Under the pieces are notes generated by a model. The model was not told the DNA's origin. It searched no databases and was given only the letters and a program-made list of their open reading frames with translations. From positions 108,114 to 172,113 of the forward strand of contig CAVWKA010000005.1 of NCBI GenBank assembly GCA_963755515.1: 64,000 nucleotides of DNA, read 5' to 3'. Position 1 is the first letter of the stretch; every line of letters starts with the position of its first letter. The translations under genes were made by a program, and so were the position numbers. Of the stretch, positions 17,729 to 25,922 are shown one piece after another. The stretch is from an uncultured Verrucomicrobiae bacterium. Lineage in GTDB: Bacteria; Verrucomicrobiota; Verrucomicrobiia; Limisphaerales; UBA11358.

Positions 17729-17736
17729 CCGGAGGA

Positions 17737-17778
17737 AATACTGTAGCCATGCAACCGCATGGCTACAGTATTGTTTTT
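17737..17778 (+). terminator. rho-independent terminator after hsp20
   Basis: 16-bp stem aatactgtagccatgc-aacc-gcatggctacagtatt followed by gttttt. Confidence 0.85.
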
Positions 17779-18061
17779 CACACATTCGCGGTTCGTTTTT
17801 TCTCTTCCTTGTCTGCTTTGTTCCTTTGCTGTTCAAAATCGTCCTGGCCCCATTTTTCTTTTGTGCGTTTTGCGCATTTTTGCGGCTAAAAACCCCGGCC
17901 CGCTTTGCGTGATCTGCGCCCATTTTCGTTATCCGCAGTTTCCCAGAGGTCGCGTCAACGTGTGAAATTCGCGGTTCATTTCCCGTTTTCCGTTCCCTTT
18001 TTGGGCTTTTTTGTTTTGCATTTTTGGCGGGAAAATGGCTTATTGTTCGGCTCGCAGCCGT

Positions 18062-18147
18062 GGTAGGTTACCCAAGTGGCCAACGGGGGCAGACTGTAAA
18101 TCTGCTGGCTTACGCCTTCGATGGTTCGAATCCATCACCTACCACCA
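18062..18147 (+). tRNA. tRNA-Tyr(GUA)
   Basis: GGTAGGT...GCAGA CTGTAAA TCTGC...GGTTCGAATCC..ACCTACC A CCA; long variable arm. Confidence 0.96.
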
Positions 18148-18407
18148 CTTCAAAAACAAAGGGAAAACTCCACTTTTAGTCAATGTTTTCAATGTGACGT
18201 TAAATTCTCCGTCTTTGGATTTGTGCGCTTTTGTGCTTTTACCGTCTTTTGCCTCCCCGTCCAAACCGGTGCTAGAAAAGCATACAATGATTTTGGCGCG
18301 GCAATTACACCAGACACACGCAAAACGCGCGTCCAGCGAACTGAACGCTTTCCTATCGGTTTCGTCTAACGTATGATTCGGTAGATTCTTTGCGGGAAAG
18401 AAAACAA

Positions 18408-19175
18408 ATGAAATTCGATTTTTCAGAACAATTTCAAAATTTATTGCACGCGCCAGTTGTGGAAGCGGTAATTGATTTTCGGGCAAAGCCGACGATTCCC
18501 TGTGATCAGGCTCAATTTGAAACTTATTTCAAAACGGAGTTCCAAGATTTTCCGATGGTTCAGGTCCACAACCAACTGAATTATCAATTGAAAGCCAAAG
18601 CAGACGGGCAACCCGAACCGGCACAAGCCACGAGTAGTTGGCATGGATTAGTTTTTCAGTCATCTGATAAATTAAGGATTGTTCAGTGTCAGCGAGATGG
18701 TTTTTCATTCAGTAGATTACCACCGTATGCCTCTTGGGATTTATTTGCAGGAGAAGCGTTAGCGCTTTGGCAAAAATATGCCACCTTGACAAAGCCCTCG
18801 GAGATTCAACGGCTGGGTGTGCGCTTTATCAATCGGATCGTAATGAAGCCAGAATGGCCAGACCTTGAGGATTATCTGACAAATGCTCCGCAGCCGTTAG
18901 CGGGCGGTGCGTTTCCCATGGTCAGCTTTTTCCATAGCAACACGTTTTTTGTTTCAGATCGAAATTACTTGATCAATCTCAATTTGGCGCTGCAACCGGC
19001 AGGTGGAGCAAACCCAACGTCAGCGATTATTGTTGATACCGATGTGTTCACGACAAACGCCCTAAATTTGGCGGAAAACACGTTGGACATTAAACTCAAG
19101 GAAATGCGCTGGTTGAAAAACAAGATTTTCTTTGCTAGTTTAACCTCGAAACTTATAGAATCACTAAAAGTATGA
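18408..19175 (+). CDS. TIGR04255-like protein
   Basis: 'APVVEAVIDFR', 'PPYASWD' and 'RLGVRFINRI' motifs typical of this family. Confidence 0.8.
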   Translation: MKFDFSEQFQNLLHAPVVEAVIDFRAKPTIPCDQAQFETYFKTEFQDFPMVQVHNQLNYQLKAKADGQPEPAQATSSWHGLVFQSSDKLRIVQCQRDGFSFSRLPPYASWDLFAGEALALWQKYATLTKPSEIQRLGVRFINRIVMKPEWPDLEDYLTNAPQPLAGGAFPMVSFFHSNTFFVSDRNYLINLNLALQPAGGANPTSAIIVDTDVFTTNALNLAENTLDIKLKEMRWLKNKIFFASLTSKLIESLKV

Positions 19176-19672
19176 CGATTCCTGCTGAAATTACGCTCTC
19201 CGTTGCTTCGGCTTCGGGGTCAATCGCTTCACGCGCCGCCAGCCCAACTGCCTGTTATATTCTCGCCGAATCTCGGCTGACTCGCGAGCGACTCCAAAAA
19301 TCCATATTTCTTGGATTAGGCAGCGAGGTGTTCAACGAACTGTTTGATGTTTCTGAAAACTGCAAACAGCCAGGTTGGGATGGTGATTCTGCCGAGCCTG
19401 TTTCTCACGATACTTTTTTGAACGCATTTCGTTTTTTGGAATCACTCCCATTTGGTATTCAAAAGCCTTCCGTTGGCGTCGAACCGGACGGTCACATCAC
19501 ATTGGAATGGTATAAATCGCCTCGGCACACGCTTTCTGCCAGTGTCAGCCCGGATGGATTTTTGTATTATTCTGCTCTCATGGGGCTGCGTAAGACCAAT
19601 GGCTCTGAACCGTTTTTTGGTGAAGTGCCCAAAATTATCTTGGAGTTGATTGGTAAAGTTTACGCCGAATGA
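19172..19672 (+). CDS. hypothetical protein with GWDG..A.P motif (putative antitoxin/partner)
   Basis: ATGA-coupled to both neighbours; 'GWDGDSAEP' and 'PDGHITLEW' motifs. Confidence 0.7.
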   Translation: MTIPAEITLSVASASGSIASRAASPTACYILAESRLTRERLQKSIFLGLGSEVFNELFDVSENCKQPGWDGDSAEPVSHDTFLNAFRFLESLPFGIQKPSVGVEPDGHITLEWYKSPRHTLSASVSPDGFLYYSALMGLRKTNGSEPFFGEVPKIILELIGKVYAE

Positions 19673-20061
19673 ATGGGGCCGCTGGGAATCCACTATCAGA
19701 TGACGAAATGCTCGCGCGCTTCGTCTTGAAAAAAGAGTGGATTCGCCCGGACAGCACCATCAAGCAGGACGCCTTCATACCTCCGAAAGATTTACAGCTA
19801 TCCGTTACACGTCATGCTGGAATTTCAACGGAACAGCTAATTGAGACGGGTAAGTCTATCGCAGCCGAAACATCTCTTGAATTTTTCGGTAGAGCAGACA
19901 TTGAAACCAGAGCGGTCGTCAAAAATGCTTTGAAAGCCGTGGCTTGGCCCCTTACAAATAATCCAAACCACGCTCATGTCGTTGGTTGGCCAGCCGACAA
20001 GGAAGCGCGAAAAACAATCGCTCAGGAACTGGCTGCGTCCACGGTATTTGTTCCTGCTTAA
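19669..20061 (+). CDS. hypothetical protein, putative ADP-ribosyltransferase/RES-like fold toxin
   Basis: 130 aa; R (LARFV), S (LSVTR) and H (NHAHVVGW) spacing reminiscent of ART/RES-like catalytic strands; coupled to the upstream gene. Function is inference. Confidence 0.55.
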   Translation: MNGAAGNPLSDDEMLARFVLKKEWIRPDSTIKQDAFIPPKDLQLSVTRHAGISTEQLIETGKSIAAETSLEFFGRADIETRAVVKNALKAVAWPLTNNPNHAHVVGWPADKEARKTIAQELAASTVFVPA

Positions 20062-24747: not shown

Positions 24748-24918
24748 TTTGATCTCCATCTCATTTGTTCAATTTCTGATTTGATATATCAAACATTTTC
24801 AAGTCTGCTAAAACTGTTTTTGCTTCGGAAGCACCTCCAAAAAAACCTTACTGAGAATTGAATTTTCTATGGACATTTCGCCGCTTCTGTGGTAATAATA
24901 ATACCACAAAGAAAAACT

Positions 24919-25288
24919 ATGTTTGGAACCTTCATCAAAGAATTGAGGGCGCGAAAGCGCCTCGGCCTGCGCGAATTCTGTCTGGAGCACGGCCACGACC
25001 CCAGCAACTGGAGCAAAATCGAGCGGGAAGTCCTCCCTCCGCCGCAGCGACGAGGAAACGCTGCGCAAATGGGCCAGGCAACTCGGCCTCAAGCCCGGCT
25101 CGGACGACTGGCACAAATTCCACGACTACGCCGCCGTGGACGCCGGGCGCATCCCCGACCACGTCATGGAAAATGAGGAATTGCTGGCCAAGCTCCCCGC
25201 CTTCTTCCGCACGCTCTCCGGCCAAAAACCCTCGCGGGAAGATTTGGAAAAACTGATCAAAATCATCAGAAGCGCCAACCGACCTTGA
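24919..25288 (+). CDS. XRE-family HTH regulator (frameshift near 25047)
   Basis: FGTFIKELR...PSNWSKIER; continues in another frame as DEETLRKWARQLG...AGRIP...LPAFFRT. Confidence 0.75.
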
Positions 25289-25922
25289 ACGACCCGGGAA
25301 AATTCAAAGCCCCATTCATCCCCAAAGGAAAGAATCTGGCAGGAAACCGAAAAGCTGCGTGCGGCCCATGCGGCGGGGCGGATCGTGCCGGTTCAGAGTG
25401 CTTGAACTCGCCGAATTTGATCTCGGCCTCGAACTGGTTCCGGCGGAAGGCTTGCGCGAGGAACTGGAAATTGACGCGCTGCTCATGGGCGATTTGAAGT
25501 CGATTCTGGTGGACCGGCGCGCCTTTATGAACCCGCGCATGGAATACCGCCTGCGCTTCTCCGTCGCGCACGAAATCGGCCATCTCATTTTGCACCGCGC
25601 CATCTACGGCGGCCGGAAACATGCCAGCGCCAAGGAATGGTTCGATTACATCGCCGCCCTTCCCGATGTCGAATACGGCTGGGTGGAATGGCAGGCTTAT
25701 GAATTTGCCGGACGCCTGCTGGTCCCGCCCGATGCATTGCGCCAGGCCTTTCAATCCGCAATCAAATCCGCGCAAGCTGCCGGCTATTCCGACTGGCTGG
25801 CTGCCGATGAAGCCGCGCTGGATTACATCGCCACGCGCATCGCGCCAAAGTTCGGCGTCTCGGCGGAAGTGATTGCCAAACGCTTGCGCGTGGAAAAATT
25901 ATGGCCGCCGACCACCATTTAA
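25285..25922 (+). CDS. ImmA/IrrE-family metallopeptidase (frameshifted 5' part)
   Basis: RLRFSVAHEIGH (HExxH), EWQAYEFAGRLLVP and FGVS motifs. Confidence 0.85.

Follow-up and report, generated by a model that had tools for sequence, protein, structure and literature searches.

A TIGR04255 gene, a 'WDG' gene and a predicted ADP-ribosyltransferase-fold gene form a conserved cassette: a candidate gated toxin-antitoxin defence module

The window analysed here is a 64,000-nucleotide stretch from an uncultured Verrucomicrobiae bacterium (GenBank assembly GCA_963755515.1, contig CAVWKA010000005.1, positions 108,114 to 172,113 of the forward strand), and our subject is a cassette of three open reading frames (ORFs) within it. 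The three genes recur together and in the same order in other bacteria, and the third encodes a predicted toxin of the ADP-ribosyltransferase (ART) superfamily. We judge the chances to be even that the cassette is a gated toxin-antitoxin (TA) defence module. Its genes, in window coordinates, are:

18408..19175, forward strand: ORF1, 255 aa, TIGR04255 family; two-lobed beta-sheet/helix (TBP-like) fold in the predicted model; putative sensor or keeper
19172..19672, forward strand: ORF2, 166 aa; variable Ser/Thr/Ala-rich N-terminal segment, then a conserved 'WDG' core; putative antitoxin
19669..20061, forward strand: ORF3, 130 aa; minimal ART-superfamily domain with R17-S45-H101 in the predicted model; putative NAD-dependent toxin

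In the mechanism that we propose, ORF3 would be a toxin of predicted ART fold that cleaves NAD+, and the folded core of ORF2 would keep it inactive. The TIGR04255 protein ORF1 would hold the variable N-terminal segment of ORF2. A phage product would compete for the site on ORF1 that takes this segment, ORF2 would be let go, and the freed ORF3 toxin would bring about abortive infection, often as a back-up inside restriction-modification (R-M) operons. What we infer from the comparisons below is that ORF3 is toxic, that ORF1 and ORF3 each contact ORF2, that a phage product acts as the trigger and that the cassette protects its host. The cassette would thus work like a toxin-antitoxin-chaperone (TAC) system, probably with a different sensor.

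The genes are joined by ATGA stop/start overlaps at 19172-19175 (ORF1/ORF2) and 19669-19672 (ORF2/ORF3), in agreement with an earlier note on this DNA, which had described three ORFs of 255, 166 and 130 aa coupled in this way. A TTG at 18390 is an alternative start for ORF1 that would give 261 aa; the nearest homologues mostly have 254-255 aa. The GC contents of ORF1, ORF2 and ORF3 are 0.435, 0.481 and 0.494, against 0.56 for the genome, and the same note's remark that they are richer in AT than the host genes was correct. The third-codon-position GC of the three genes (0.44-0.46) is far under the 0.69-0.71 of hsp20 and aldolase next to them, which marks the cassette as foreign to its host. 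Contigs from two public DNA runs (X1, X3), either of which is possibly the source sample, cover ORF1-ORF3 with no base change listed within them.

The conserved triad and its predicted toxin

Homologous loci were collected from genomes with the ORF2 alignment (best 80 of 159 found) and from metagenomes with the ORF3 alignment (best 80 of 111 found); some are near-duplicates. Loci, genomes and contigs are cited by our working numbers (L, G and C). ORF1, ORF2 and ORF3 follow one another in this order in 74 of the 80 genome loci; ORF3 lies directly downstream of ORF2 in 78 and ORF1 upstream in 75, with two loci incomplete at the edge and three that lack ORF1. In the metagenome loci ORF2 precedes ORF3 in 74 of 80, the remaining six being incomplete and none lacking ORF2, and ORF1 is present upstream in 55 (23 incomplete, two without it). 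Because 74 of 80 independently fetched genome loci keep both the genes and their order, the arrangement is not due to chance, and the conserved triad for which the earlier note had proposed to look in other genomes does exist. By record titles the loci come from Verrucomicrobiota, Planctomycetota, Acidobacteriota, Nitrospirota, Cyanobacteriota, proteobacteria and others. The ORF1, ORF2 and ORF3 distance matrices correlate over 61 paired rows (Spearman 0.61-0.68; permutation maximum 0.235), a result that common ancestry alone could yield.

The host genome holds a second, very divergent copy on contig C14 (L005 334-2019, minus strand; G000:C14:1119-2804). Its TIGR04255 gene is split over two frames, by a frameshift or an assembly error; the middle gene encodes 153 aa and the R-S-H gene 128 aa, and hhalign relates the latter to ORF3 at 94%. 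This copy stands tail to tail with an ORF that by eye resembles a restriction endonuclease.

The AlphaFold model of ORF3 (predicted local distance difference test, pLDDT, 95) has six strands. R17, S45 and H101, the sole invariant columns of the 139-sequence family alignment, lie on strands 1, 2 and 5 (strands at 14-19, 44-48 and 101-105). Strands 1, 2 and 5 also carry the active site in the H-H-h ART clade. Exhaustive structure alignment against 48,161 chains, of which the best 50 rows were considered, gave KptA (Z 8.2, 98 aligned, 3.0 Å) and Tse2 (Z 7.0, 104 aligned, 2.9 Å) as the closest structures, and further rows include Tpt1, AvrPphF, Scabin, Tne2, TreX, DarT and RES toxins. About two of the 50 rows apart, the matches belong to the ART superfamily by title or known identity, the leading ones at Z 8.2-5.1. 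The earlier description of ORF3 as an ART-like protein with R, S and H positions is thus borne out by the predicted fold, the KptA and Tse2 matches and the three invariant residues. Two results tell against the assignment: Foldseek found no match for ORF3 at E<=0.001 (best KptA, probability 0.92, TM 0.51), and the best Z of 8.2 is close to the tool's stated background. The ART call therefore rests on the consistency of the list. As judged from the model, ORF3 is very probably an NAD-using toxin.

The acidic columns of the ORF3 alignment above 70% are E13, D28, D77 and D110 only, none of them on strand 5. Because strand 5 carries an invariant His and no acidic column, ORF3 is neither an R-S-E enzyme nor a CmdT-type H-Y-E enzyme. 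The comparison with CmdT drawn in the earlier note does not hold, the CmdT triad being H-Y-[E,D,Q] (PMC11618068). Since strand 5 has His rather than Glu, we also favour the destruction of NAD+ as the chemistry, at a little under an even prospect; ADP-ribosylation of nucleic acid is a serious second candidate, and ADP-ribosylation of protein is an unlikely third.

Among the known ART proteins, the top match KptA/Tpt1, an NAD-dependent 2'-phosphotransferase, is aligned over its C-terminal half (chain 82-180); ORF3 differs in lacking the N-terminal RNA-binding lobe and in being sporadic, not housekeeping. The RES-domain toxins (MbcT, ParT, Xre-RES, VPA0770) belong to the same superfamily and appear at Z 3.2-4.6. 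Unlike them, the ORF3 family has no Pfam RES match (none at E<=0.1 among 139 members) and a His on strand 5, and its partner is no Xre/MbcA antitoxin. Tse2 has an Arg-Ser-His triad. This second structural match (PDB 5AKO, 14% identity) is an antibacterial effector of the Pseudomonas aeruginosa type VI secretion system, secreted and paired with a helical immunity protein, whereas ORF3 lies in a non-secretion operon and has no sequence-level match to it.

In sequence searches the ORF3 profile has matches in 2,536 clusters (clustered at 50% identity), and Pfam gave nothing consistent over the 139 members. Pfam scans of ORF1, ORF2 and ORF3 found no match, ORF2 and ORF3 have no NCBIfam match, and Protein Data Bank sequence searches with the ORF2 and ORF3 profiles returned nothing significant. 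The best match in a BFVD fold search of ORF3 is unnamed (E 1.2e-3). An Atlas search of the cassette proteins gave unnamed clusters only; the closest named one for ORF3 is DUF6098 at 0.91, which is a lead only.

ORF1, ORF2 and the gating of the toxin

W69, P99, G107, W113, A135 and L136 are invariant in ORF2. Conservation increases from 0.25 (residues 1-20) through 0.48 (residues 21-49) to 0.68 in the core, so that a poorly conserved, Ser/Thr/Ala-rich start is followed by moderate conservation to about residue 49 and then by the conserved core. Residues 1-27 are poor in aromatics (F+Y+W 5%). On sequence grounds ORF2 is likely to inhibit ORF3.

To compare the extent of the N-terminal segment, we took the 128 loci in which 400 bases or more separate the start of the ORF2 match from the locus edge. 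Where ORF1 is present (123 loci), the match always starts at model position 1-19, and where it is absent (five loci), always at 39-49; in other words, the N-terminal ~45 residues are present in 123/123 and missing in 5/5. L108 and L166 look like intact two-gene ORF2-core/ORF3 pairs without ORF1. Such co-variation is expected if the segment links the antitoxin to a protein that keeps hold of it, as the ChAD does in TAC systems, where its removal makes the antitoxin system chaperone-independent (PMC11618068; bioRxiv 10.1101/2024.02.24.581848). We lean slightly towards the view, drawn from these alignments, that ORF1 would act through the N-terminal segment of ORF2.

ORF1 matches the NCBIfam family TIGR04255 with E 2.4e-33 over residues 14-254 (116 bits against a cut-off of 30; model positions 4-252 of 252). 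A full-text literature search found TIGR04255 in no paper. The AlphaFold model (pLDDT 92) consists of two lobes of sheet plus helix, and its top structural rows are AdoMetDC (Z 9.4, 106 aligned, 4.0 Å), McsB (Z 7.8, 172 aligned, 4.4 Å) and TBP (Z 7.2, 161 aligned, 5.2 Å). Spermine synthase and adaptin appendage domains are also among the best rows, which span Z 7-9.4 with a root-mean-square deviation (rmsd) of mostly 3-5 Å. For a predicted model, these matches are a common arrangement and not a fold assignment. At the sequence level ORF1 has no internal repeat and no similarity to ORF2.

A TBP-like saddle would also suit a nucleic-acid-binding sensor or regulator that controls ORF2-ORF3 via DNA or RNA, for example by sensing phage DNA or a failing R-M enzyme of the host, much as PrrC guards EcoprrI. 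The TBP and RepDE rows cover the whole ORF1 model (Z 7.0-7.2, 159-171 aligned), basic and polar residues are conserved (R135, R139, N142, R234, K237, N238, K239), the triad contains no helix-turn-helix (HTH) gene, and the cassette sits between hsdS and hsdR in L023, L026, L030 and L040. However, Z 7-9 at rmsd 4-5 Å may reflect a common arrangement, peptide-binding appendage domains and kinases scoring equally, and a nucleic-acid sensor would leave the tracking of ORF1 by the ORF2 N-terminal segment unexplained. We regard this alternative as unlikely.

Another alternative takes the cassette for a true TAC of reversed gene order, in which ORF1 would correspond to a fused SecB dimer: a chaperone of SecB type with an internal duplication and strong divergence. 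The C-terminal half of the ORF1 model runs strand, short helix, three strands, two helices, which we take to resemble the order of elements in SecB. TACs likewise exchange toxins around one chaperone (PMC11618068; bioRxiv 10.1101/2024.02.24.581848). SecB, however, is not in the best 50 rows (Z at least 5.7) of one ORF1 fold search, nor among the matches listed in a second. Alignment of the TIGR04255 family and of each half with SecB by hhalign gave at most 0.5% (0.25% for the whole family) with a shallow SecB profile of 5 sequences, and none of 51 ORF1-family members matches Pfam SecB or any PADLOC model, Pfam giving nothing consistent. The variable segment of ORF2 is N-terminal and aromatic-poor, unlike the C-terminal aromatic ChAD. 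The evidence leans against a SecB-like ORF1, a likeness that the earlier note had suggested and these searches do not support, and we consider a true TAC quite improbable.

Resemblance to CmdTAC and other TACs nevertheless goes some way: three genes, CmdT as an ART toxin, a third component that several toxins share and, as proposed for ORF2, a low-complexity antitoxin segment tied to that component. TACs have the order toxin-antitoxin-chaperone, a C-terminal aromatic ChAD and a SecB tetramer as chaperone (same sources). The cassette has an R-S-H protein, the reverse order, an N-terminal segment and a 255-aa two-lobed protein without detected SecB similarity; the C-terminus of ORF2, where the defining ChAD of a TAC would lie, is conserved core.

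Modularity, genomic neighbourhood and known systems

TIGR04255 genes occur with toxins other than ORF3. Nine TIGR04255 loci from the host's phylum, outside the host genome, comprise three clear triads, one weaker triad, two operons ending in PIN, one in a HEPN-like gene and two in genes that are MazF-like by eye; Pfam finds PIN in L007 and L013 and, below its cut-off, HEPN in L006. In a second phylum, 32 TIGR04255 matches gave 30 loci. Their ends are of ORF3 type in nine clear cases (including the centre genome and one truncated gene), four weak and two doubtful ones; ten are PemK/MazF-like (one by Pfam, nine by eye), three papain-like by eye and two unclear. The PemK/MazF end gene of L189 was confirmed by Pfam (E 1.1e-18), which gave no support for the by-eye readings of L008, L011, L188, L191, L197, L200 and L203 as MazF-like or of L184 and L185 as papain-like. 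The third genes of L180, L186, L194 and L208, considered as ORF3-like, remained unconfirmed (hhalign at most 2.4%). Of the plasmid operons with TIGR04255, one ends in an annotated zeta toxin and one in a HEPN-like frame by eye. The middle gene differs with the effector.

Two other gene sets were seen in this survey. In L184, L185 and L187 the TIGR04255 gene and a middle gene of helical type precede the gene for a conserved protein of ~215-230 aa, whose His and Cys motifs hint at a permuted papain-like enzyme, possibly a candidate new effector; the two such proteins scanned matched no Pfam or PADLOC model. The middle gene that follows TIGR04255 in L191, L201 and L205 contains an HTH (in L191, the Pfam family HTH_3), and the third gene, of ~270-280 aa, has a MazF-like N-terminus by eye.

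The ORF2-core/ORF3 pair is found with other inputs in turn. The PADLOC model PDC-M32B is matched by 19 of the 139 ORF3-family members, and the C-terminal third of PDC-M32A (model positions ~250-375) by 7 of 16 middle proteins, though not by the window ORF2. PDC-M32B was found at 11 places in 10 of 301 genomes, and the proteins match the ORF3 profile at 96.7% (E 4e-10), their R, S and H falling on those of ORF3. At 10 of these 11 places a WDG-like domain closes the upstream gene; hhalign of this domain with ORF2 is weak (0.75%). The part before the PDC-M32-type WDG domain is a domain unrelated to TIGR04255, repeats (L235) or nothing (L238). PDC-M32A as an ORF1-ORF2 fusion was rejected, since its N-terminal part of ~250 aa scores only 0.5-0.8% against TIGR04255. 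In L235 (1866-3179) the gene before PDC-M32B joins a WDG-type domain to helical repeats in tandem, possibly a repeat-based sensor on the same toxin core. The cassette is thus modular in both directions: TIGR04255 occurs with other toxins, and the ORF2-core/ORF3 pair occurs without TIGR04255.

These fusions bear on a further alternative, in which ORF2 is an activating adaptor and ORF3 stays inert until ORF1 and ORF2 assemble on it. A WDG core joined to differing N-terminal modules before the same ART (the PDC-M32A domain, the L235 repeats) is what signal-input domains would look like, and the gene order would read sensor-middle-effector. Against this, core-plus-ART pairs that have no input module exist (L108, L166, L238). 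The gene of a type II antitoxin usually lies upstream of its toxin gene and is coupled to it, and ORF2 holds just this position. An adaptor role seems to us very improbable.

PDC-M32 resembles the cassette in that an R-S-H ART-like gene (B) directly follows a gene ending in a WDG-type domain. It differs in having two genes, not three, and a gene A of ~375 aa where ORF2 has 166 aa; the homology holds at the family level, the window ORF2 and ORF3 themselves having no model match. The PDC systems are candidates, drawn from genes that lie inside defence systems, type I R-M among them (Payne et al., bioRxiv 10.1101/2024.01.29.577857). In the full-text literature PDC-M32 was found named only within a prophage listing. 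A second system for comparison, DS-42/PRO1, is a validated three-gene Escherichia coli system encoding a 238-aa hypothetical protein, a 190-aa hypothetical protein and a metallo-beta-lactamase (MBL) hydrolase; its protection on Bas1 is given as a -log efficiency of plating of 1.1, marked replicated (PMC13092281). It shares the three-gene size pattern of the cassette and differs in its effector, an MBL hydrolase as against the ART-fold ORF3. The cassette is neither PDC-M32 nor DS-42. Literature searches for TAC or TBP-like three-gene anti-phage systems found no description of the triad, although supplements and subscription papers may hold one; TIGR04255 is not mentioned in the main text of PMC13069673.

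The neighbourhood of the triads points to defence. The nearest long ORF on each side was scanned at 72 of the 80 genome loci (8 likely near-duplicates were excluded beforehand), 126 proteins in all. Type I R-M subunits account for 24 of these, in 18 of the 72 loci, whereas none of 3804 ORFs of the host genome, the single genome used as control, matches those 24 proteins. Other matches are to DruE-like, HmaC, LmuB, type III restriction endonuclease, TIR and PDC-S01 models; cysteine desulfurase, a kinase, a sigma-54 activator and a MotB-like protein appear as housekeeping cross-hits. The defence-type neighbourhood for which the earlier note had proposed to look is thus present. TIGR04255 proteins appear among the predicted defence genes in Table S4 of DefensePredictor (PMC13092281), with log-odds of 9.3 and 7.4 for two of their eight occurrences. 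From its gene context, the cassette probably has an anti-phage role.

In another alternative the cassette is selfish: an addiction or stress module that keeps mobile DNA and R-M loci stable and plays no part against phages. TIGR04255 is sporadic, occurring in 8 of 251 genomes of the host's phylum and in 29 of 301 of the second phylum (that of G251), or about 3-10% of the genomes sampled. The base composition of the cassette is foreign, and its DNA has a sole match among 30 relatives, one 66% stretch of ORF2 at a site other than the tRNA gene described below. Plasmids gave three ORF1 matches and no ORF3 match, and viral contigs three weak ORF2 matches. Addiction, however, needs no dedicated third component, and related candidates and TIGR04255 were rated as defence in two independent published screens. 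We hold an addiction module to be a poor prospect, and the gated TA module remains our preferred reading.

Several further observations weigh against it. An ART fold is no proof that ORF3 is toxic, the closest match, KptA, being a repair enzyme. The co-variation of the ORF2 N-terminal segment with ORF1, which turns on five loci, is equally explained by one deletion that took out ORF1 together with the first part of ORF2. ORF1, ORF2 and ORF3 of the window have no direct match to a PADLOC model, and the window copy is surrounded by housekeeping genes, with no further defence gene seen adjoining. Type I R-M is not the nearest long ORF in 54 of the 72 loci, the control is one genome and the loci are non-independent. 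In L011, TIGR04255 directly precedes the MazF-like gene (by eye) without a separate middle gene. Broken copies persist (ORF3 is interrupted by insertions in L020 and L229, and ORF1 is frameshifted in L005), L085 has ORF1-ORF2 with no ORF3 match, and L086 carries the ORF2 core alone.

Some of these loci have features of their own. In L229 (2026-5100; G572:C6) the triad lies amid suf genes and a transposase gene interrupts ORF3. L085 (3199-5154) has a PIN-like gene, by eye, ~230 bp after ORF1-ORF2. Orphan ORF2 cores with no ART gene lie in L024 (4112-4507 and 7878-8012), downstream of a full triad, and in L086 (5821-6342), between a Lamassu LmuB-like gene and hsdR.

More tentatively, and with somewhat less than even confidence, we suggest that TIGR04255 serves as sensor in a widespread and so far undescribed class of gated TA immune systems. 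It would be a TBP-like protein, distinct from SecB, that takes hold of antitoxins unrelated to one another by their N-terminal tails. A single phage-sensing switch would thereby govern ART, MazF, PIN, HEPN, zeta, papain-like and possibly MBL effectors, as a convergent counterpart of TAC; the commonest effector would be the R-S-H NAD-using family of ~2,500 clusters. This gives a testable role to a family so far without one. If it is true, proteins that hold an antitoxin came to sense phage on at least two occasions, a single sensor can be connected to many toxins, and there is a natural context in which the chemistry of the R-S-H branch of ARTs can be sought. The cassette, at 1.65 kb, is small enough for synthesis and direct testing.

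The tRNA-Tyr site and other features of the window

The cassette follows a tRNA gene, the 3' end of which is 260 bp from the ATG of ORF1. The features at this site are:

18062..18147, forward strand: tRNA-Tyr(GTA), found by ARAGORN; an integration site in the host's genus
18148..18290, forward strand: post-tRNA stretch resembling the sequence after tRNA-Tyr in G572, G566 and G568
L225 1219-12780 (G572:C5): the G572 element at tRNA-Tyr, with an integrase-like gene and, by eye, Cas-like cargo

Alignments with the relatives G572, G566 and G568 run through the tRNA and 115-140 bases beyond at 78-81% identity, and the stretch 18148..18290 is, from this similarity, likely the remnant arm of an integrative element. 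Same-genus G570 has hsp20 followed by tRNA-Tyr with no cassette. In G572 an element of ~11.5 kb at tRNA-Tyr ends in a 60-bp copy of the 3' part of the tRNA and carries an integrase-like gene, by eye; its cargo presumably includes a 1375-aa Cas12b-like gene and a 600-aa Cas4/Cas1-like gene, again by eye. G566 has an integrase-like remnant at tRNA-Tyr. The host genome contains no second copy of the tRNA 3' part (att), and no integrase was seen next to the window cassette. We read the cassette as cargo left behind at a used integration site. The earlier note had invoked a tRNA hotspot, which is real in the host's genus and is not a trait of the family: a tRNA of any kind occurs in 7 of the 160 homologous loci, just upstream and on the same strand in two (L081, L149), and an association with tRNA genes across the family was rejected.

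About 5 kb from the cassette, window positions 24858-25922 hold an HTH-like ORF followed by an ORF that by eye reads as an ImmA/IrrE-like metallopeptidase (HEIGH motif). Between hsp20 and tRNA-Tyr, the 300 bp at 17732-18031 contain a repeat with many genomic copies, and the contigs of two public runs omit exactly this segment; it is probably a small mobile repeat.

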